Source: Rotaria sp. (lineage: Eukaryota). From it: a stretch of DNA of 34,604 nt. The stretch spans positions 400,093-434,696 of the forward strand of contig CAJNUA010000005.1 in the NCBI GenBank assembly GCA_905330235.1, in the 5' to 3' direction. Shown in pieces: positions 1,090 through 26,464 of this stretch; position 1 is the first letter of the stretch; each line of letters begins with the position of its first letter. The notes under the pieces are model-generated. The model worked only from the letters and a program-made list of their open reading frames with translations, was not told the DNA's origin and did no database searches. A program made the translations under genes and the position numbers.

Positions 1090-3113
1090 ATGGTGGTACA
1101 TCTTGGTGGTCTTGCAGCCGTTGTTTTTTTTTATGTTCTTATTTTACTTGTTGGAATATGGGCTGGACGAAAACAAAAATCATCGGAAAAGTCACCCGAT
1201 ACAGAAGAGATTATGTTAGCAGGAAGGAATATTGGTTTACTGGTTGGGATATTTACAATGACAGCAACATGGGTTGGTGGTGCATATATTAATGGTACTG
1301 CTGAACAAGTTTTTTCTACGGGTCTTCTTGCATGTCAAGCGCCATTAGGTTATGCTATTAGTTTAGTTGTTGGTGGATTATTGTTTGCACGACCAATGCG
1401 TAATGCAGGATATGTTACAATGCTTGACCCATTTCAGCGTAAATATGGTCAACGAATGGGTGGATTATTATTTATACCGGCATTATTAGGAGAAGTATTT
1501 TGGTCAGCAGCTATTCTATCAGCACTGGGTGCAACAATTAGTGTTATTTTTACGGATGTTTCAACGGTAGCATCAATCATTATATCAGGTAAAATATTTA
1601 AGAAAATAATATTTAAAAAAAATTGAATTATTTTGATATATTTAGCAACTGTGGTTATTGTTTATACTCTTTTTGGTGGATTGTATTCAGTAGCTTATAC
1701 TGATGTTGTTCAACTTGGATTTATTTTTGTTGGTCTTTGGGTAACTATTCCATTTGCTATGAAACATGAAGGCGTCGGTAGTATTGTTGCTACGTGGCCT
1801 GAATGGCGTGGACGTATAGAAAAATCTCAAATAGTTGAATGGATTGATAGTATGTTATTATTAATTTTTGGCGGAATACCATGGCAGGTAAAATATAATG
1901 TGATTTTTTCTTATTTACAATAGAGAAAAGTCTCTTCATTTTTAATTTATTAATAATATTTCGTGTAAGAAACAGTGTGAAAATCTAAATTGAATTTTGA
2001 CAACTTTTTGTTTAGTTAATAATTGGCTTTTATCTTGTCTTGTTGCTTGTTTTAGGTCTATTTTCAGCGCGTTCTCTCAGCTAGATCAGCTAAGAAAGCA
2101 ATGTATCTTTCATTTTATGCTGCTGTTGGTTGTATCATATTGGCAATACCGCCTGTACTAATTGGAGCTATTGCTAAATCTACTAGTCTGTCTAGATTTT
2201 ATACTGGTTCAACTTATATTTATACATCTATTCTATTTGTTTTAGATTGGACTATGACAGATTACGATATAAATAAAGATATAACAGCACCTGAAGCAAC
2301 GAAACTAATTTTGCCATTAGTTCTTTTACATTTATGCCCAAAATTTATTGCATTTATTGGATTAGGCGCTGTATCTGCTGCAGTTATGTCAAGTGCTGAT
2401 TCGAGTGTACTTAGTGCTAGTTCTATGTTTGCTCGAAATGTCTGGAAACTTGTTTTTCGTGATCAAGTATATGATTTATTAATCTTGATTATTTAAAAAA
2501 AAGAAATTTTTCTTTTTCTTTTTATTTAAAATAGGCATCTGAACGAGAAGTTTTACTAGTAATGCGTATTGGAATACTTCTGGTTGGAATAGGAGCTGCT
2601 GGCATTGGCATTCTTGTATCTTCAATTTATATCCTTTGGTATTTATGTTCAGATCTTGTTTATGTCATACTGTTTCCACAATTACTTTGTGTTGTTTATG
2701 TTCCACATTCAAATACATATGGTTCATTAGCAGCATATATAACAGGTTTTCTTTTTCGTATTCTTATTGGTGAATCATCATTAGGAATTCCAAAATTCAT
2801 TAATTTTGGTCCATATATTCCACCGAAAACTTTATGTATGCTTATAAGTCTTGGAACAACATTAATTATTTCTCAAATAGCTAAAAGTCTTTTTGAAAAA
2901 CGTACTTTACCACCAAAATATGATATATTTCATTGTCTTGTTGATATACCAAATGAAACTTTACCATTAAAAGAAAGTTCAACAACAGATGAATTACAGT
3001 ATAAAGTTATTAAACCAACAACAGGACAACAATATTTAACTGAACCAACAATGATGATTAATAATTCTTTTTCACAAAGTCAAGAAATTTTAAATTCATA
3101 TGGAAAAGATTAA
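1090..3113 (+). CDS. CHT1: High-affinity choline transporter (SLC5A7/CHT1 family), complete CDS: join(1090..1588,1646..1887,2056..2466,2535..3113), 576 aa
   Basis: The spliced translation [26 protein letters not shown]...[31 protein letters not shown]...[14 protein letters not shown]...GGIPWQ|[15 protein letters not shown]...[22 protein letters not shown]... aligns along its whole length with the human CHT1 landmarks ([76 protein letters not shown]). All three introns have GT..AG boundaries (gtaaaat..tttag, gtaaaat..tttag, gtatat..aatag). Exon phases are consistent (499+242+411+579 = 1731 nt) and the CDS ends in TAA. Confidence 0.9.
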
Positions 3114-15240: not shown

Positions 15241-15909
15241 TTAATTATTAATATGAAAAAGTGCATATTGAATAAACTTTTCCCACGATGAATAATTCAA
15301 TTCTAATTGTTCACAATAAATTCCATAACATAAACGTTTTTGCTCGTAAAAATGAATTACTTTATCAACATTTTCTAATAAAGTTTTCGGTAAATGACGA
15401 TAAAGAATTGACTTGAAATTTAAAAAAATTTAGAAAAAGAATAAAAATCTCACAATTTCTTACTCGAATTTGTTCACTATCAAATGGAACTAAAAATATA
15501 TTTCTTTCCGACACAGGTACTTGTAATAATAGTTCAAGAAGAATGATACCCGTAGCAATCAAATGGATTATATCATTTTGTATATTTAATGCTGAAAAAA
15601 AAATAAATTCGTTTGTTGTTTTTTTTACGTTCCAATAAAAACAAATAATTTCATCTTACCAAAAGAACTAAAACCTTGTTTATTTAAATATATTTTAAGT
15701 TCATCAAAATCTCTCATACTAAGAGATAATAAATTAGCTAAATCTTGATTTAAATCAAATGACCCATTTGTTAATTGAATTCTTTTTAATTCATTTATCA
15801 TCATCGAAGTTAAGTCGATTTGTTTCAATTTATTAAATGTTGAAAAACCTTGAAAATGTTCTGGTTCATCAGTAAAATTAACTTTTTCATTTGTAGTTTC
15901 ACCTTTAAG
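15241..15909 (-). CDS. Putative nuclear-receptor ligand-binding-domain-like protein, partial (the 5' exons and any DNA-binding domain were not found): complement(join(15241..15411,15464..15591,15660..15909))
   Basis: Three exons splice in frame through GT/AG introns (gtaag..tttcag, gtaaga..ttcaag). The product ...DELKIYLNKQGFSSF|GALNIQNDIIHLIATGIILLELLLQVPVSERNIFLVPFDSEQIR|SILYRHL... resembles the NR LBD signature region (FAK.IPGFSSL..DDQ..LL....E.L.L....RS), but similarity is moderate. Only ~180 aa were recovered. The most upstream exon starts at an acceptor (tttttag|ctt), so the gene continues 5' of 15909. Confidence 0.35.
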
Positions 15910-16859
15910 CTAAAAATTAAAATGAAAAGGATTTTGTTGTTTTTAAAAGAGAAATCATGAGACTATCGAGTATACGAGGCGCTCAATAAAAAAAGAAAAA
16001 CAAAACAATTTTCCCTTCTTTTGTGTATTCATTACAACGATGTCTAAAACTACCAATCCCAAAATTTTAACTGCCAACAACATTTCTTTGAAAAGTTAGT
16101 CAATAGCGACCTTTTATCACTATCATACCCTTATGAAAAAAAAATAAAAACTTTCTTTTAAAAATCGAACTCGTTTCCACAAATTATTGGAATTTTTTAT
16201 AAATTTTCCGACGAGTATAAAACGTCCACTTGATAACAATCTGTCTCCGATCGAAATCAGCAATCAAAATCGAATCGAGTTATTTGACAATTCGATTCAA
16301 CAGCAATTTCTTTAGTAATCTTCAAACACGAACAACAAAATTCACGTCAATATAGGGTTCATGCTCTTTGTGTCTTGTACTTGTGCAAAGTGTATCAATC
16401 TCTTGGTATGAGAAGTCTACTGCTATTCATTTCGAAATATCATGAATATAAACTCGGTTTCGCCCCGAACATACCATGTATTATTGAATAATCAGTTACC
16501 ATGTTCTAGCGAATAAAAAAAATCTTTGATCCTGCATCCCGGTAGAAAGTAGATTATTATAAAGTGGATATTTTAAATTCGTCAATTAAACTATTTTTCA
16601 TTGTTGTTGACCGTATAAAACTAGTCTCAGTTAAACATTGTATTATTATTTTGAAATAAGTCATTTTGTTCAATTTTTACTTTTCTATCTTTTAATATAA
16701 TTTATGAAAAAACTCGAATCATTCGTCCAAACAAGTACGACTTTTGCAAGACTTTTTCTATTACTTTTTTTCATAAGGATATGATGGTTGTAAAAGTTGA
16801 TATTGACTATATTTCAAAAATGAAAGCTATTGAAAACTAAAATGTTGGAGTTCATGTGG

Positions 16860-18775
16860 TCAGATGTCGACGCATTGAATGCACAAAAAAAATTCTTTTT
16901 CTTTTATTAAATAGCTCATATAAGTCGAGTATCTCATAATGGCTTTCTTAATAATTTTACAAACCATATATAGTGAATCATTGGGTCCTCGATCATGAAC
17001 ACATGCAGCACGAAAATCTGGGTTACTTTCTACATATGAAAGATGTCGTTCAATATCATTTGTGTTATGTAGATCTATATAATAAATAGAAAATAACTCA
17101 GAAAATTTTCATTTTAATTAAGAAATATCCTTACAATCATTTTTTGAATTAATTACAAATTTGGTTTTAGCACCTGATCGTGATTCTTCAGCTTCAACTT
17201 GTACGAAACCATTGCAATCAATATCCATAACAATTGATATTTCTAATGTTTGTGAAGCAAAATTTGGTGTTAAACCTGTAAGTGTAAATTCACCAAGAAA
17301 TATCTAAAAAAGCAACAAAATGAATTAACATAATAAATTTTGATTTGATATATTTTAAACTAACATTATATTTTGTAAGTTTATGTTCTCCACTGAAAAC
17401 GCGAATTGAAGCTGTTGTTTGATAAGCATAAGCATTTGTAAATACAGGATAAAATTGTGTTCGAAATGGCATTGTTGTATTACGCCTAATAATTATACAC
17501 ATGTGACCATTAATGTCTTCAATACCTAAACTGAGTGGTGTAACATCAAGTAATAAAACACACTCTTCGTCAGTTTTATGAGCTGACTTAGGTTTTCCTT
17601 TCATCCTAAAATGCAGTCAAATTTATGTTATTGAGTACAGTTAATGCCTATTATTTCAAAGTCGTACTTCTTTAATAACATCGAATCTGTCTTGGCAGAT
17701 AATTCACATGCAAATTCTCTGGAACTTGACCTGACTATTGGCATTACCGTTTGTTCATCGCATCGTGTCTACAATGAGTAATAATTTATGCAGATGATCT
17801 AAGCTTAACTCTATCTGTACATACATCAGTATACCGTCCCCATGACTCAGAAGCTTTATGGATGACATGTTTAGCTTCTGAAGCTGACTTTAATTGGTTT
17901 GCAATATCGGAAAATTTATGTTGTTTCGATTTTTGACTCGTTAAAGTGCAGAAATCCATTTTGTTGTGTAGTTTACTTGATTGCTCAACAGTTCTCCCCG
18001 GATAAATAGATTCATTTTCTTCAACAGTTGAGCACGGTTCATATGATTCTGTTCGGATTTTATCAACATCTGATAACATTTCCATTGATTCACCAGATCC
18101 ACCGAATGAAAACAATAATTGTGACTCCGATGATGTGCTGCTAAATGGTAATGCTCCTGTTGTTGTTGGTGGTGGAGGAGGTGGAGGTGGAGGTGGAGGA
18201 GGAGCAAGAAAAGATGGTCGTGGTGGTAGTTGTGAAGGCACAGCAGAAAATATTGCTGAACCGTCATATTCTTTGGGCGCGAAAGTAGCATTCATGCTAT
18301 TACTATTGTAGTTGACGTTACTTCCAAATGTGAATGCATGTGATGCAGAAAAAGGAGCTGATGATTGAAAACCGAAAGTTGAAGGTATTGTTGAAACATT
18401 CAATACTTGGGAGCCGAAAGAAGCGTTGGTCGTAATGCTAGATGTGAATGGATTGAACGCCAATGGTGAGGTATGAGAAGGAGGTGGTAATGTTGCAGTG
18501 GTGGTAATGGTAGTATCAGTAGTAGTCTGATACCCTACTGGAACATTAAGCCCTGAAAACATTGGATAAACATTGTTAGTGTTGATGACATTGCCTGGGC
18601 GCGAAAATAATGATGTTGTAGTTGGAGCCCAGCTTGAGTGAATCATTTGAGGCGTTTGTGGTGCAAACGTTTCCTCATTCAACATGCAAATACTCTGTGG
18701 GGAAACAGATGAATCTAATATTGTCACTTGTTGCTGTTGTTGTTGTTGCTGTTGAATTGGTGCAGAAAAAAGCAT
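16860..18775 (-). CDS. Protein with a Q/P/FG-rich disordered N-terminal region fused to an Hsp70 substrate-binding domain (SBD-beta) homologue and no nucleotide-binding domain: complement(join(16860..17074,17135..17303,17365..17605,17835..18775)), ~521 aa
   Basis: Exon 1 (941 nt) is low-complexity: polyQ(11), PPPPPPPPPPPP, and SFGSQ/TFGFQ/TFGSN repeats. Exons 2-3 encode ...[124 protein letters not shown]. This aligns with Hsp70 SBD-beta ([105 protein letters not shown]). The donor choice cg|gtatac at 17834 is the only one that keeps the frame. The first in-frame ATG is at 18775, and an upstream AG acceptor at 18880 sits in the same frame. Confidence 0.65.
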
Positions 18776-18980
18776 CGGTAAATCATTCAAACTATATTGT
18801 TGTTGTTTTCCTTGTAGTCGATGAACAGAAGAAGTGTACTGGTTATTTTGAGCTTTTCCCCTTGACTTGCTACATGTTTCTGAAAAAAGGATTGATTACA
18901 ATTCATAACAAATCGTTGCCATTTTAAGGACAATCTCAAAGCATCTTTTGAAAATAATAAACATCAAAAGTTATCGATAA

Positions 18981-21900
18981 TTATTTTATCTGAACATAGG
19001 TCTCGATGTGGTAGGAGTTAAGATCGGTTAGCTGCCTTCTCCTACTGTCTTCATCATATCTATGAAAATGCTGAACTGTAGTGGGAAAATTGTCCGCCAA
19101 ACTTTCAGTTCTTTCCACTTCTAAAAACTATCGAAACTCTTGTATTTGGATATAAAATATATCTTATTGAAAATTTTTACCTGTTGCAGATGAAATTTCA
19201 TGAGCAAAAAGATTCATATCAAAGTCACACGACTTTTCTTGAACCGGCGCCTTTTTCAAGCGAACTTTTGACAAAACTGGAGATGCTATCTTCTTTTTTG
19301 AATATTCTTTCACTTCTTGATTTGTTTCTTTTTGTTTTCCAGTTTTCTTTGTATGATACACCATAGATTTCATCTCTTCGTAAGGAGAAGGACCAAAATC
19401 AAGTTCATGAGAATTGATTTCTTCTTGTTCTTCATCATAGGACAACGCAAAAGATTTTCTGTTACTGGGAGTAACAGTAATTTCTAGTTTCTTAGATGTT
19501 GTGTTCGCCTCTGTCAGCGGTTCATAGCCATCGAAGAGACAAAAACCCATATCCTCATCATTTTCTTCACTCTCTGCGTCTTTTACTTGTTTACTTTCAC
19601 TACGTTCTAGTCTACATTCATCAACTTCTCCGAAAACATATAAAATATAAAAATATTTAAAATTATGTTTTGAGTAAAGTAAATTTACCTATCAAATCCG
19701 ACCTTAAACATGTGGAACTGGATTGTACTTCATCTACATCAAAGTCACATGAAAACATTTTGCCATTATTCCTCTAGAGTTGATTCAAACGATTTTTCAT
19801 TCATGCTATAGAATTAACTTACAAATAGTTCACCGACAAACTCACCGCGTCCGTTACGATAATCGCCACGACCACCTTCGCCACCGTAATACATTTCATC
19901 ATCATCAACCGGTAACTCTTCTTCTTTTTCTTTTTCTTCCCCTTCTTCATATTCTTCCTCTTCTGTAAAAGTTGTACGTCGATGTTCTACATCTTCTCTA
20001 ATAAAAATATAATCGCAATAATATACATATTCTGCATATTCAACTTACAATATTTCAGCTTTCATACGCATATCAATTTCATCAAATCGTTTTTCTAATA
20101 TTTTTCTTTCATCAGTTGTTGCATTTTTTATTTCATTAATTAAATCTATTAATATTCATTGGGTATTAACTAATAATTTTAAGAAAAATTTTATATTTAC
20201 CTTTCTGCATATTTTCTTCTAATTCTCGAGCTTTTTCTTTTTGCTTAAATGTTATTCGATATGTATCAATAATTGCTACCATTAAGTTATATTTTGCATC
20301 ACCACCAGAACGATATGATATATTCTGACAAAGACTTTCATATTCATTTAATAACTCAACTTTATTTGATATTGAAGCACTATCAAATAAACGTTTTCCA
20401 TTAATTAATTTATCTTTAATTATATCAATTTGTGATCGATCACCGTCCCAACCAATGTATGGAAGTAAATCAATATCATTTTCAAGCATAACATCAAGTA
20501 ATCGAACACCTGGTTCAAGTGCTTGTCCATCACGTTCTTCAATAGCTACAAAACTTGTAAATGAACTCACAACAGAATATTTCATACTAAGTTCAATTAA
20601 ATCTTGTTTATATTTCTTTTTAATAAGTTCATTTTCACATTCATCATTATGTAATAAACCATTTTCATAATCTTGAATAATTGCACGAGCTGTTAAACAA
20701 TGTAATATACGGCCTTTTGTGTCAGTTATTTTATTACTAAATACGGTGGTAACATACTCTTGATTATTTATTGTCGCTGTTAATGTTGCTTTATGACAAT
20801 TCTGTATAAAACGATATGCAGTTAAGCGCATACCATTAAATAATGATCGAATTATATTTGGTGCTTGACTAGTAAATTTTTCTTGTTGATCATCAATTCT
20901 TCCATGCCAATCAATGGATACATTTGTTATACATGGTTGACCAATATGTTCAAGTATTTGAAGTACTTTTGTTTTCCATCTTGAACGATAATTTGAATCA
21001 AATATAGTTGTTAAACCACCACCATTCATCTCATTAGCTAATTGTCTTAAATTATGTTTATTAGATGTATCACCAATTGAACATGTAAATAAACGATCAT
21101 GGCGCATTGATGATTGATTTTTTAATAATGTTAAAATAGATTGGAGATCATTGATATGCCCATCTGAAAGAAGAATAAATTGTCGACCAAGTTTAGATGA
21201 GGATGGTAAAAGAGAATATTGACGAAGTACAGAAAATAGATCAGTATTACCACGATGATCAAGTGAATGCTATAACAGATATAGACTTAAATATATTAAA
21301 AAAAGAAGAAACAATACAAACCAAAACAAAATGCTTAGCTTTATCAATATTTTCTTTTGTATTTTGTGATGCAATAGGAAAACATTCATCATTATCTAAA
21401 ATAAATAAATTAATGAAAAATAAAATATAAAAATATTTTTCTGGATTTACCTGATCCAAACGTAACAATATTAAAGAAAATATTTCTATCAGTTTTCATA
21501 TTCGTCAAAAATAAATGTGTTAACTGTTTTGCTTGTTGTACATGCTTTCCATCCATAGAATTTGATACATCAATAATAAAAATAATTTCCACATATTCAT
21601 TTGAATTATTAGCTATTTCAAATTTTGGATAAAATGTTAACATACATGCTTGACAATTTTCATCAATCGATTGATTATTAGTATTTGTATCAGATGGCGC
21701 ATATGTTTCATTTAACATGCGTGGTAAATTAACACTTTTTAATGTTATTGAAAGAATAAAATCTTTTTCAAATAAAATATTATCAACAAGTTCAATCATA
21801 GCAAGACAATCAGTTATTTTTCGACGAAGTCGATGTGTAGGTGAAAATAATTTTGTTATTTCGTATGGCATACGTATTGATGTTTTGAGACTAAATTCAA

Positions 21901-24900
21901 CTGATTTCATTGAAGAATTATCTTGTTCAAGATTAATTGACGGAAGTATTGTTTGATCTTTCATTTGTAAAGCTTGTTTTGATTGCCATGAAGCTACTTT
22001 AGCTGGCAAACGAAATATAATATCATTACTTTCAATAGATAATTCAGCAACATATGTGATTTTAATAATCACTTCACAATTAGCTGGTAAATTACCAACC
22101 GATACACTGAATACTTCAGGTTGTTCTTGATGCATTAAATATGCGCCATGACCTTTTTCAATAGCTTCACGATATTCACGTTTAGCTTGTTCTTTTTCTT
22201 TAACAACACCTTTAATTATTTTATTATTAATATGAGCTTCAAAACCACAAACCGAAGAATTTTCATCCAGAGGAAATACATATTTTGCTTCAATTGGTAC
22301 TGAACTTGAATTATGATAAACTTGATAAAGAACAACCTAAAATAATTTATAAAAGGTGTTTTGTTTTTACAGAAAAGAAAATTATTTAATTTACTTCAGC
22401 AGTAACATCAACAAGTTGTGCACGAATATGAAAAGCTTTCAGTGGAACAAGTTCACCTGACGATGGACAAACTAAACCATAGTCTTGTTCTGCTACTTGA
22501 ATTACTTCATCTTCGATTGTTGAAGGAATATCTACTGAAATAAATATATACATGTATGATAACTACTTTATCGACTGCAATACTAACGAAGGAACGCTTC
22601 TAAGTGTCAAATCGTTTTTGAATCGGGACGACGTGGATCATATAGGCTCTAATCCACTATGAATACTCTGAAAAGAGTTCAGACTAACAGCTTATTACAA
22701 CTGAGATATTGTATTTTTTAGTAGAATTCCGTGATCGCTCTTAGAAATACTAGAAAAACTAAGTTTTGAATTTTGATTTGAAACTTTACATGAAAACAAG
22801 CCCTAATGAGAATAGTTTATTGTAAAAGTTTGAGATCTTTTGATTATTTCTATCCTAAGATACGGCTATTGTAGTAAAAGCATGTTTTTCACGCAGCTCA
22901 TATACGTCGACGTATTCCAATGTTCTTATTTCAAAATAGATGCAATCGAAAAATCTGAAACTTTCACAATAAACTATTCCCATTAAGGCTTGTCTGTGTG
23001 CAAAGTTTCAAATTGAAATTCAAAGCTCAGTTTTTCTAGTGTTCATGAGAGAGCCACAGTATTCTGCTAAGAAATTCGGTAAAAATATAGTATCTCGACA
23101 GCAATTAGCTTTTAGTCCAAATTCTTTTTCAGGTATTTGTATCTCATTAGAGCCTACACGATACACCTATTCTCGATTCAAAAGCAGTTTGACAGTTATA
23201 AACGTTCCTTCATTAGTTTAAATCATTTTCTTTATAATATTGCTGGAGATTGCTCAATCGAAAATATATAAATGGTTAATGAATTACAGAGATATTGACC
23301 AGAAGTTGCTCTTGTAACGTTATATCTAACCGTGACCCATTTATCAAAGAGTCACTGTATGAGAGTCACGCATCGATTCTACTGAACTGAAAATTTCAAA
23401 CTTTTGTTCACATTTGCGCATAGGCCTAACTGTAGTTTTTAAGAGAAAATATGTGAAGGAATTCTATCGCGCTAATCTAAAGAAAAGTTATCTACATGAT
23501 GAAGTGCTCTAAAGCCACTCTATACACCTTTGTAACAGACTTTTTTCAGACCAGTACGTTGAAACTGTTTGAAACATTTTTCTCCGAAGACTAATCACGT
23601 AAATTTATCTGGATACGTAAGCAAATGTTTGAGATCTTCAATTGAGCTGAAGCATTCATGAGTCTCATTTCATAATTCATGTCAACTGTTTATAGAGAAG
23701 TTGAACGGTTACCGATATTTATTTAAAATACCAGATATATTTGAACTTATTCTATTAATAGTATATAATACATCTTCATTGCATCAAAAGGGAGCTATAT
23801 TTCTGAAGAGTCAGTCTTTACTCTCAGCTGATCTCCATCTTTATGTGTCGTTCTTGTTATCACCTTCAACTAATTATCTGCCTTCAACTTAGTTTCTTTC
23901 ATTTGGTAGTAACATAAGTAATGAGATTTAGAGAAAAATCTAAGAAATCCCTAAAAAAACTACTCTTGGAAGCTGTTACTATGAGGATGACAAACGTCTT
24001 ATCTAGGGATCAATATATTACGATAAAGATTTATCGAAGAGAATCGACACGAAATTAAGACGAAATATGAATGCTGTTATATATTATGACTTATCTGTGA
24101 TTTGGTTAGAAAAACCTGATTACCTTCATCTGACAGTGATTTTGACTGATTTGTTACAGAATCACGAATAATAGGTACTAATTTTGGTGATTGATCCGTA
24201 TTGTCATATGGTATCCATGAAAGTTCAACAAGATAAAGTAATCGTTGTTGATCAAGATTATAAATAGCATATTCATCATCCTAAATAAACATTATAATAG
24301 AAATCTGATCGAAAACATGACTTATTCCTTACAATAAACTTTGAATTATTTTCATCATTTTTTTTTACTCCATGTGTACTATGAAAATTTTCAGGCGGCT
24401 GTGTTAAATTTGGTGAATATGAATAGAATGTAGCAGAATCTCCTAATGCTACTTGAGATATACATAATAATCGTCTACCAGGACGTGTTATACTTGGTGT
24501 TGTATATTTTAATGATGTTGAAACTGAATCAGAAAAATAAAGTCCATATCCTAAGCACCCAATATCAGTACGTGCAACTCCTAAATCATTAGCAACTACT
24601 TTTGGCATAAGAAGACCACTAAAAAGAAAATTAAAAAAAAATTGAATATAAAATTAAAAAGGACGATTGTTTTGTTTTGGATCGATTTACCGTGATAAAA
24701 TACCAAGAAAATTATTATATTTTGATCCATGAAAAAGTTGTTTTTGATTATACAGTGTTGAACAAAAATTCAATGCATCTGTTTGTTTAGCTACACTATA
24801 TATTTGATGAATAATTACTTGTTCATTTCTGCAAAAATATAAAATTTTTGATTTTATTTTGGTAATTACAAACAACAACAAAATACGAACACATTCGTTG

Positions 24901-26464
24901 ATGAAGAAATCATATTACTAATTGTTCCATATTCATGCGTATCATTTTTTATGGCTTCTATATGGCATTTCAATGCTCGATATTTTGCTTCGATTGATGC
25001 TTTTATATTCCAATTTGTTAATTCATTTACAGTAATCATATCGCGTAGCATCTAAATTGTGAAAAAGAAAGACTAGAAAAAGAAAAAAAAAGATGAAAAT
25101 AGAATTTCTACCTGACATAAGTCTAATTTATCAATTAATGCACGACGATTATTAACAAGATCGACAACAAATGATTTTTGATGAGGAATAAGTGAATAGA
25201 AACGAGTTTCTGCTTCTGATGATGATTTACTATCAGATTTGATATCAAGTAAAGCAGCTTCTGCTTCAATAATCTAATAACAATATGAAAAAAAACAATA
25301 AACAAATTGTTTTTTATATATGTTTCTTCCTACTGTTTTAAGAGCAATTGCCTCTGGTTGTACAGAAAGTATTTTATTTAAATCGCCAATTGATTCAATC
25401 CAAAGAGATTCAACTAACTGACAAACATTATCGTCAAGCATTTGTGTATCGATTCGATGAAGAAATAGTGACTATAGATTAATAGAAATTTTTTCTCGAG
25501 CAAAAAAGGATTTTATGTTTATCTTACACGTAATAATAATTTAGAACTTAATTTATCAGGTAATAAATCACGAATTCGTATTATTCGTGGCATTGTTGCA
25601 ATACGATTATAATATGAAGCATATAATTGATGTAATTCACTAATATCATTACTAAATGCATATTGAATTAAAGTTATTTTACCTTTTGAAGTTGTTATTG
25701 TTTGTTTTTCATAACGAAATCTTAATTGGTAATCATTGCTTATTTGATTATTATATTCTTCTGGAATAATTTGAAGTTCAAGAGAAAAATAAACATCAGA
25801 ATTTTCATTTGTTTCCTATTTTACAAGAAAATAAATAAACAATAAATTTATTTCTCAACAAATACGTATTTACTTTAAAAATTGCCCATTTGCCAATTTC
25901 AGCATGTGTCAATTCATCAAATCGTGGTATTTCAACATCGTCAGAATTCCAAATTTTTATTTTTGATAAATCTAACTTGACAGGTTTTATTGTACTACTT
26001 GAAGGATTTCCTCCACCTATGAGAGAGAAAAAAGATAGTAATCATTTATGTTTCAATGAAATCAGTTTATTAACCTGTAACAGGTATAGTACCACTTTTT
26101 GAAAAATTTTCTTTATCTTCTGCTGACGTTACAATAAATCGTTTAATATCAATAGATGCAGTTTCATTAGACGATTTACGATATTCATAAATATATTCAA
26201 CATTTACTAATGGTATACCAAGCTGTTTAGCTCGACGAGTTTTATATGTATCAATATCATTGGAAACCAAAACATAATCAGTCTAGGGAAAAATTAATTT
26301 AATTATATTTAAATATAATATTAATCAAAACATACACTAGCTGTCAAAATATATGAGATACGAGCGTTTTGTTCATGTAAATAGTTAATAAGTTCTTGTT
26401 TAGCTTTGAAACGAATATCTCGACCAAGCTCAAGTACAAATGTTTTACCACATAATGGTAACAT
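18981..26464 (-). CDS. PARP4: Vault poly(ADP-ribose) polymerase (PARP4/vPARP-like), complete 19-exon CDS, ~1645 aa: complement(join(18981..19120,19181..19627,19689..19773,19823..19997,20049..20145,20201..21269,21328..21395,21451..22336,22395..22534,24124..24280,24333..24618,24691..24828,24870..25051,25112..25273,25334..25471,25528..25815,25874..26016,26075..26282,26336..26464))
   Basis: The domain order matches human PARP4: BRCT (MLPLCGKTFVLELG...VNVEYIYEY), a WGR-like exon, the PARP regulatory helical domain (FYSLIPH...LDLCQMLRDMITV...EAKYRALKCHIEAIKNDTHEY), the PARP catalytic domain (LFHGSKYNNFLGILSRGLLMPKVVANDLGVARTDIGCLGYGLYFSDSVSTSLKYT...LLCISQVALG) and VIT (GELVPLKAF...VPIEAKYVFPLDENSSVCGFEAHINNK...EYREAIEKGHGAYLMHQEQPEVFSVSVGNLPANCEVIIKITYVAELSI). 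These match human PARP4 strings such as VPIEAKYIFPLDDKAAVCGFEAFINGK, EYLEAVTQGHGAYLMSQDAPDVFTVSVGNLPPKAKVLIKITYITELSI, FYRLIPH and LLHGSPVQNIVGILCRGLLLPKVVEDRGVQRTDVGNLGSGIYFSDSLSTSIKYS. A vWA domain follows (IIFIIDVSNSMDG..., ...RLFTCSIGDTSNKHNLRQLANEMNGGG...) and then the conserved segment LHCLTARAIIQDYENGLLHNDE...FTSFVAIEERD (human: IHKLAARALIRDYEDGILHENE...FTSFVAVEKRDE). All 18 introns are GT..AG. Their phases sum to 4938 nt, exactly 1646 codons. Seventeen introns are 41-72 nt and one (22535..24123) is ~1.6 kb. The last two exons (3' of 19181) are the least certain. Confidence 0.85.
22535..24123 (-). other. Long (~1.59 kb) phase-1 intron of the PARP4 gene, lying between the catalytic-domain exon and the first VIT exon and carrying a nested foldback element
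   Basis: The donor gaa g|gtaatc at 24123 and the acceptor tatttcag|ta at 22535 give the in-frame junction ...SLSDE|VDIPSTIEDEVIQVAEQDYGLVCPSSGELVPLK. This reproduces the human PARP4 linker between the catalytic domain and VIT. The interval has no long ORFs and contains inverted repeats. Confidence 0.75.
22725..23065. mobile_element. Foldback / MITE-like element inside the PARP4 long intron, with arms 22725..22816 and 22981..23065 (~80% identical over ~85 bp, inverted)
   Basis: The reverse complement of 22725-22816 (cattagggcttgttttcatgtaaagtttcaaatcaaaattcaaaacttagtttttctagtatttctaagagcgatcac) matches 22981-23065 (cattaaggcttgtctgtgtgcaaagtttcaaattgaaattcaaagctcagtttttctagtgttcatgagagagccac). 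The arm sequence is related to the arms of the 10355..10656 element (gcaaagttt..a..ttcgaa/caaa...tttctac). Confidence 0.65.

Follow-up and report, generated by a model that had tools for sequence, protein, structure and literature searches.

A 34.6-kb stretch of Rotaria sp. DNA (contig CAJNUA010000005.1; referred to here as the window), which is AT-rich, eukaryotic and has short introns, very probably carries on its minus strand (26464-15241) one PARP4 gene, predicted to encode a protein of ~2,320 amino acids (aa), which has been split by annotation. As deduced from sequence comparison, the order of domains in this protein is a BRCT-like domain, the PARP catalytic domain, VIT, vWA, an acidic tail, an S/P/Q/FG-rich linker, an Hsp70-derived segment (interdomain linker, substrate-binding domain [SBD] beta and helix A), a linker of ~40 aa, and the MVP-interaction domain (MVPID, also termed MINT) of PARP4. 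We regard the explanation developed below, taken as a whole (gene identity plus mechanism), as likely.

A first-pass annotation of the window, made from the sequence letters, had presented the Hsp70-like segment as a gene of its own (16860-18880) for an SBD-only relative of Hsp70. The SBD lies instead within a longer protein which ends in the PARP4 MVPID; the headline claim was thus largely an annotation artifact, and a stand-alone SBD-only family was rejected.

Gene model

The closest database protein to the tail half of the gene, as identified by homology search, is the 706-aa protein P0001 of Rotaria sp. Silwood2. Mapping of this protein onto the window produced a model of eight exons on the minus strand, located at 18775-17825, 17768-17668, 17605-17365, 17303-17135, 17074-16965, 15909-15660, 15591-15464, and 15411-15241, the last of which includes the TAA stop codon. 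Every splice site in this model is GT/AG, the product (which ends in ...FHINN) matches P0001 at all but 3 of 706 residues, and, aside from one intron of 1055 nt (15910..16964), the introns measure 52-68 nt. The coding region therefore continues to 15241, past the 16860 end of the first-pass model, from which three exons were missing: its last exon ran through the true donor, tatatg/gtttgt (16965; here and below, a slash marks the splice junction), into the 1055-nt intron and so reached a false stop at 16860. A further donor in that model, cg/gtatac at 17835, is probably unused, the public model having gat/gtatgt at 17825 and an extra 101-nt exon (17768-17668). The earlier four-exon, 521-aa model did splice in frame, and is replaced by the eight-exon model.

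The 5′ two-thirds of the gene (19181..26464, minus strand), which specifies the BRCT-like N-terminus, the PARP, VIT, and vWA domains, and the acidic tail, was placed by tblastn of the 1587-aa protein P0122; PARP4, with its PARP, VIT, and VWA domains, does lie directly upstream on the same strand, as had been described. The H-Y-E motifs of the catalytic domain are present in P0122 as LFHGS, GLYFSD, and DDEY, and PF00644 is assigned to the public model. The VIT and vWA families of this ITIH-like region, PF08487, PF13757, PF00092, and PF13768, are assigned to the upstream model and also to the fused orthologs described below.

Junction between the two annotated genes

In the public Silwood2 annotation, a 1587-aa protein and a 706-aa protein stand in place of one. 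The upstream 1587-aa model, to which Pfam assigns PARP, VIT, and VWA domains and no MVPID, stops (GKNFQ followed by a stop codon, 19166-19164) five codons beyond the donor acag/gtaaaa, whose last exon base is 19181. This phase-1 donor joins the acceptor ttttcag/aaa (18879) in frame across a 301-nt intron (18880..19180), a compatibility which the first-pass annotation had correctly recognized, and the open reading frame (ORF) is open from 18895 to the annotated ATG. The large exon that follows the acceptor (17825..18879, minus strand) thus comprises 35 codons before the annotated ATG (18775) and the remainder of the disordered linker. The junction peptide reads ...HEISSAT/ETCSKSRGKAQNNQYTSSVHRLQGKQQQ in the window and ...GEISPRA/EIPSESRERSSIRQYTSSDHGLQEQQQQ in the R. 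sordida protein P0121, with the peptides after the junction aligning, and the same donor and acceptor flank an intron of ~294 nt in R. sordida (L004:10455-10748). Moreover, the orthologs are single genes in R. sordida (P0121; 2409 aa) and A. vaga (P0125; 2221 aa) and occupy syntenic positions, the gene order being UBA gene, PARP4, and lipocalin in the former and PARP4 and lipocalin in the latter. Order and strand were also the same at each of the four loci checked, with the SBD-MVPID part following the PARP-VIT-vWA part. Among the options offered by the first-pass annotation, a long C-terminal extension of PARP4, akin to the disordered tail that precedes the MVP-binding domain of the human protein, is accordingly the one supported by the conserved in-frame junction, the conserved peptide before the ATG, the syntenic single-gene orthologs, and fused models in three lineages. 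Two observations speak against a single gene: three GenBank Silwood2 assemblies annotate two, and the fused models of other species are gene predictions which may themselves be over-merged.

Production of two isoforms from this locus, which would be compatible with the explanation preferred here, is considered rather unlikely. If the 301-nt intron were retained, or an alternative 3′ exon within it used, a short, non-docking PARP4 would result, while splicing would yield the long form with the SBD and MVPID. An in-frame stop is indeed found five codons into this intron, which is ~5 times as long as the 52- to 68-nt introns typical of the gene, and the ORF which the first-pass annotation had delineated within it is also uninterrupted in R. 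sordida, where it differs by a 3-nt indel. However, the acceptor AG and the TAA stop of that putative PARP4 terminal exon (~19120-18981) are not conserved, being replaced in R. sordida by TAC and TAT, respectively, and the exon is not retained in our model. Furthermore, with 82% identity between the window and R. sordida, the intron shows no conservation beyond that of other non-coding segments (64-93%).

The presence of two genes, in which PARP4 would end at GKNFQ (stop at 19164) and the 706-aa protein would be a separate vault-docked adaptor without an enzyme, transcribed from its own promoter or resolved by spliced-leader (SL) trans-splicing at 18880, appears improbable. Bdelloids use SL trans-splicing, the ATG at 18775 comes after the acceptor, and the two parts are called separately in Silwood1 as well as in the three Silwood2 assemblies. 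In addition, at one paralogous R. sordida locus (L009:10001-29407 and L007:7034-13298), ~8.5 kb separates the PARP-VIT-vWA exons from the tail, SBD, and MVPID exons, such that tail-only expression is conceivable there. On the other hand, the 35 codons before the ATG are open and their peptide is conserved, as is the in-frame junction; PARP4 would be left without its defining C-terminal domain, whereas the R. sordida and A. vaga orthologs are single genes; and the split is seen mainly in the Silwood1 and Silwood2 annotations. The 8.5-kb gap at the paralogous R. sordida locus harbors no called gene and no PARP4 similarity, and could reflect a very long intron, an insertion, or a real tail-only gene.

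The exon between the junction and the SBD encodes a disordered segment of about 312-317 aa which is S/P/T/Q-rich and contains Q9, P12, and four FG motifs (FSFGG, FTFGS, and STFGF being among its motifs). The composition given for this exon (~313 residues) in the first-pass annotation was accurate with the exception of the poly-Q tract, which had been counted as 11 residues. When this linker exon (18775-17825) and the PARP4 tail exon (19571-19182) are compared with R. sordida L004, the proportion of synonymous differences (pS) is 0.33 and that of nonsynonymous differences (pN) is 0.27-0.28, a divergence which exceeds that of most neighboring introns and intergenic DNA (7-24%). Such values reflect either low-complexity misalignment or unusually fast turnover, and they recall the rapid evolution of the primate PARP4 linker (PMC10450202).

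The 101-nt exon (17668..17768, minus strand) that was absent from the first-pass model encodes a TRCDEQ motif and a basic stretch ahead of the SBD; this motif, TDTRCDEQ in its extended form here, is conserved in P0006, P0008, P0121, and the A. vaga protein P0125. More generally, a motif of the form (R)YTDTR(C/S/F)DE, located at the boundary of exons 1 and 2 (window ~17834-17750) and 40-60 residues ahead of the SBD, is kept from Rotaria to Adineta in one paralog group amid fast-evolving disordered sequence. This motif could be a cis-ligand, or a site of modification or cleavage.

The Hsp70-derived module

The Hsp70-derived module (17040..17571, minus strand) comprises the interdomain linker LLLDV, SBD-beta, and the start of helix A, and is distributed over three exons (17605-17365, 17303-17135, and 17074-16965) separated by two introns of ~60 nt each. 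The Hsp70 homology claimed in the first-pass annotation was confirmed by profile search, residues 326-461 of its 521-aa product matching Pfam HSP70 (PF00012) with an E value of 1.2e-24; the match covers only profile positions 380 to 510 or 511, of 599. The best sequence match of the SBD in the PDB is the substrate-binding domain of rat Hsc70 (4e-23), and the SBD fold of an AlphaFold2 (AF2) model was confirmed by Foldseek. The reported absence of an ATPase domain was likewise substantiated, as tblastn with three full-length Hsp70s found no nucleotide-binding domain (NBD) anywhere in the window, the only matches across the 34.6 kb being to these exons.

The lid, which had been described as absent, is represented by the start of helix A (DIERHLSYVES; AF2 model residues ~180-191) and by nothing beyond it, a disordered linker and the MVPID following directly, and there is no EEVD motif. 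With three of the five defining Hsp70 features tested being absent, the protein is a member of the PARP4 family and not an Hsp70. In common with the SBDs of DnaK, Hsc70, and BiP, to which it is ~35-40% identical, the rotifer module possesses a beta-sandwich, a hydrophobic pocket (I401, F426, I438, and I472), the arch residue A429, Q433, and the DLLLLDV linker. It differs from them in that the protein has no ATPase domain, no lid past helix A, no EEVD, and no R467; because the NBD is missing, an ATP-driven cycle is not possible.

Most paralogs have DLLLLDV as the interdomain linker, which reads CVLLLDV in the window; L, L, D, and V are invariant. The pocket and arch residues of the DnaK-peptide structure, taken as I401, F426, A429, Q433, I438, and I472 (DnaK numbering), show no variation, or only I/V exchange, across 36 family sequences. 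Loop L3,4 has a 10-residue, family-specific sequence which is invariant in the same 36 sequences and is preceded by a 2-residue insertion. The latch residue R467, which pairs with the lid in DnaK, is lost, as would be expected given that there is no lid. Judged on residue conservation, the pattern is that of a constrained, specialized binding site.

In the comparison with A. vaga L005, the SBD core shows a pS of 0.27, as against 0.72 for the disordered exon in this pair of genes; gene conversion among paralogs, codon constraint, or alignment bias may possibly account for the low value.

The C-terminal domain and its relation to the vault

The three terminal exons (15241..15909, minus strand) encode a linker and a helical domain (~15843-15259) which corresponds to the MVPID. 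Several relatives carry a precomputed match to Pfam PF26156 (“PARP4 MVP-ID C-terminal domain”). PF26156 was not reported by our Pfam scan of the tail product, and the assignment was therefore tested independently. A profile built from twelve bdelloid C-terminal domains and searched against 177,635 PDB sequences returned a sole significant match, namely, human PARP4 residues 1574-1697 (E=3.5e-6), which falls within the human MVPID/MINT as delimited at 1570-1724 (PMC10450202) or 1562-1724 (PMC12280208). The 12-sequence profile was needed for this detection, since a single-sequence phmmer search of the domain against the PDB gave no match. Foldseek with a shorter and poorer, MVPID-only model provided no confirmation. 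By profile and by fold, the rotifer C-terminal domain is the PARP4 MVPID.

In humans, MINT fixes the C-terminus of PARP4 close to the vault waist, between repeats of MVP, with the remainder of the protein reaching into the lumen, and the residues which contact MVP are S1614, K1618, Q1682, and R1689 (PMC12280208). S1614 aligns to a conserved S in the rotifer domain. Two findings count against docking in the same manner: two of the four human contacts are replaced in the rotifer family, K1618 by an invariant N and R1689 by an invariant Q, and the MVP residues which bind PARP4 are vertebrate-only, according to the cryo-electron microscopy paper. Because of these replacements and the reported vertebrate specificity, we infer docking of the rotifer PARP4 to the vault from homology only.

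Distribution and origin

Hsp70s filled the candidate list of the initial homology search, which missed all fused orthologs; these were recovered with a composite query from which the SBD had been omitted. Fused PARP+VIT+VWA+HSP70 proteins of ~2,000-2,600 aa, many of which carry PF26156, are present in R. sordida, R. socialis, R. magnacalcarata, A. steineri, A. ricciae, and A. vaga. The D. carnosus protein P0310 (2098 aa) has the same PARP+VIT+VWA+HSP70 composition and belongs to a 90%-identity cluster with P0264, whose C-terminus matches the MVPID profile. HSP70 was absent from the non-bdelloid PARP4 matches of the composite search, which derived from a sponge, cnidarians, echinoderms, amphioxus, a nemertean, an annelid, molluscs, and vertebrates. 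An exhaustive hidden Markov model search of 1.84 billion representatives with the MVPID profile returned 73 proteins; among those looked up, the named strong matches are all bdelloid (Rotaria, Adineta, and Didymodactylos), while the weak named matches are vertebrate PARP4 C-termini. In these searches, the PARP4+SBD architecture was found in bdelloids only.

The architecture is common to Rotaria, Adineta, and Didymodactylos, for which reason the recent chimera considered in the first-pass annotation is rejected. The SBD was captured before the sequenced bdelloid lineages diverged and has been kept in many PARP4 paralogs. That it is a degenerating piece of Hsp70, or a chimera of recent origin and without function, is scarcely credible: the NBD, lid, and EEVD are absent and the pairwise omega of the SBD is only ~0.6, yet ORFs and splice sites are intact in dozens of paralogs from three bdelloid lineages, the pocket residues and the 10-residue loop are invariant, and A. 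vaga members are expressed and radiation induced. Concerning its source, the bdelloid SBD profile scores Hsc70 and BiP at 106 bits, DnaK at ~97, and mortalin at ~89. A eukaryotic Hsp70 of the cytosolic or endoplasmic reticulum type appears the likelier donor, albeit by a small margin. Horizontal transfer from a bacterial source is weakly disfavored, since Hsc70 and BiP outscore DnaK and the DLLLLD form of the linker is the cytosolic one.

Most animals have one PARP4 (PMC4245714); bdelloids, by contrast, have dozens of paralogs. Unlike human PARP4, the rotifer protein carries an inserted Hsp70 linker and SBD-beta just ahead of the MVPID, in addition to the exchange of K1618 and R1689 for N and Q. 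In amoebae, Capsaspora, lancelet, and sea urchin, 14-3-3, actin, or ubiquitin-related domains are known to be appended to PARP4-like proteins (Perina et al. 2014, PMC4245714). The rotifer protein resembles these in combining a clade-5 PARP, VIT, and vWA with an extra C-terminal protein-interaction domain, and differs from them in that the addition is an Hsp70 SBD, which is unmentioned in PMC4245714. VWA5A and other VIT-vWA proteins possess an MVPID-like helical C-terminal domain (PMC10450202) and have neither a PARP domain nor an SBD; PARP4 is the better match for the rotifer protein. Literature searches yielded no paper describing an Hsp70 SBD in PARP4; the sequences, with domain labels assigned automatically, are already public.

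Further domain combinations were observed among these proteins. A second group of bdelloid PARP4 proteins (P0139-P0141, P0145, P0157, P0167, P0171, P0173, and P0013) has EF-hand pairs between the vWA domain and the disordered linker, plus the SBD and MVPID. In D. carnosus, a PARP4-like protein (P0313/P0294) has PARP_reg, VIT, and vWA followed by a 14-3-3 fragment, Cdc37_N (weak match), part of an Hsp70 SBD, and the MVPID (likewise a weak match), such that a single tail combines several chaperone- or adaptor-related pieces. Outside the bdelloids, the Pfam lists of PARP4-like proteins include 14-3-3 (Corticium, Branchiostoma, and Owenia), actin (crinoids, Glandiceps, and Corticium), and ubiquitin (bivalves). 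These 14-3-3, actin, and ubiquitin additions extend the pattern of Perina et al. 2014, and some may be gene-model fusions.

Proposed function of the clamp

We tentatively propose that the SBD acts as an ATP-independent client clamp which is tethered in the vault by the MVPID, a role that we hold to be possible rather than probable. In such a mechanism, the MVPID would anchor the C-terminus of PARP4 at the inner vault wall, as in humans, and the adjacent SBD-beta, being lidless and ATPase-less, would clamp extended hydrophobic peptide segments without ATP. Clients, or a specific motif, would thereby be held in the vault lumen, where they would be reachable by the tethered ADP-ribosyltransferase, and the clamp would act in the radiation and desiccation response, during stress recovery. 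The more specific suggestion of a vault holdase, in which the clamp would catch damaged proteins, or specific ones, by their exposed hydrophobic segments so that they could be sequestered or ADP-ribosylated, is more doubtful still.

Several observations count against this explanation. Within the pocket, V436 is replaced by A and T403 by an invariant D, and there is an aromatic YAY loop, changes which could signify a specialized or altered ligand and not generic unfolded clients. The dN/dS ratio (Nei-Gojobori, against R. sordida and A. vaga) is 0.4-0.8 in every region, with 0.44 for a non-coding control, although with sequences as diverged and AT-rich as these, pairwise dN/dS carries no information. 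Finally, the AF2 model of the SBD is of low confidence, with a predicted local distance difference test (pLDDT) score of 50-70.

A rival possibility, which seems unlikely but deserves consideration, is that the SBD binds segments of PARP4 itself, namely, the LLLLD linker of a neighboring molecule or FG-type motifs, so that the tails would oligomerize or compact along the vault wall. Lid-truncated BiP and DnaK oligomerize via SBD-linker contacts, and the structural matches of the rotifer SBD include lidless oligomeric or dimeric SBD constructs (7a4u/7a4v and 4f01). The L-L-(L)-D-V core of the interdomain linker does not vary, despite the lack of an NBD that could receive it, and FSFGG, FTFGS, and STFGF in the disordered exon would provide candidate ligands. 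Conservation of the linker is, however, perhaps partly structural, since the linker leads into strand beta-1, and AF2 produced no confident cis-docking of either the linker or the upstream YTDTRCDE motif in the pocket (residues 1-64 having a pLDDT of <50).

If a vault-tethered client clamp were to be confirmed, vaults would gain a defined cargo-capture mechanism, and a rare instance of an Hsp70 SBD working outside Hsp70 would be added. A clamp located beside the anchor offers a testable hypothesis of cargo recruitment, which bears on what vaults carry, how they do so, and the role of PARP4 inside them. An Hsp70 SBD kept for so long under constraint without its ATPase is also informative as to how this domain may work alone.

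Stress-response context

The hosts of this architecture are radiation- and desiccation-tolerant animals that induce MVP and these PARP4 genes jointly. Of the several MVP genes of A. vaga, five are over-expressed after irradiation or rehydration, and the PARP family of this species is expanded and induced (PMC10809525). The supplementary tables of the same study list A. vaga PARP4-like genes with PF00012 in addition to PARP, VIT, and VWA. Among these, FUN_013713 shows a log2 fold change of 4.5 after radiation (false-discovery rate, 4e-94) and of ~0.2 after rehydration alone, and FUN_002086 shows a log2 fold change of 1.8 after radiation (PMC10809525). The table of strongly over-expressed genes files FUN_013713 under “HSP” (PMC10809525, supplementary files 7 and 12); as this gene is a PARP4 with an SBD, at least one reported radiation-induced “HSP” is therefore a vault PARP. 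This binning of the A. vaga member, together with the gene splits in Silwood1 and Silwood2, affects how many HSP and PARP genes are counted in bdelloids.

Minor features of the locus

The 1055-nt intron contains inverted repeats of ~56 nt at 16087-16142 and 16765-16819, with ~620 nt between them, which resemble a miniature inverted-repeat transposable element or other non-autonomous transposon. The orthologous intron measures ~987 nt in R. sordida and is short in A. vaga. A gap of ~1.6 kb (window 24125-22535) separates the catalytic-domain exons from the VIT exons, the usual introns of the gene being ~60 nt. An Rfam scan of the window gave no matches. At the left end of the window (1090-2496, plus strand), ORFs matching the sodium:solute symporter family (SSF; PF00474) indicate a transporter gene, and an SSF gene is also present near the orthologous A. 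steineri locus.

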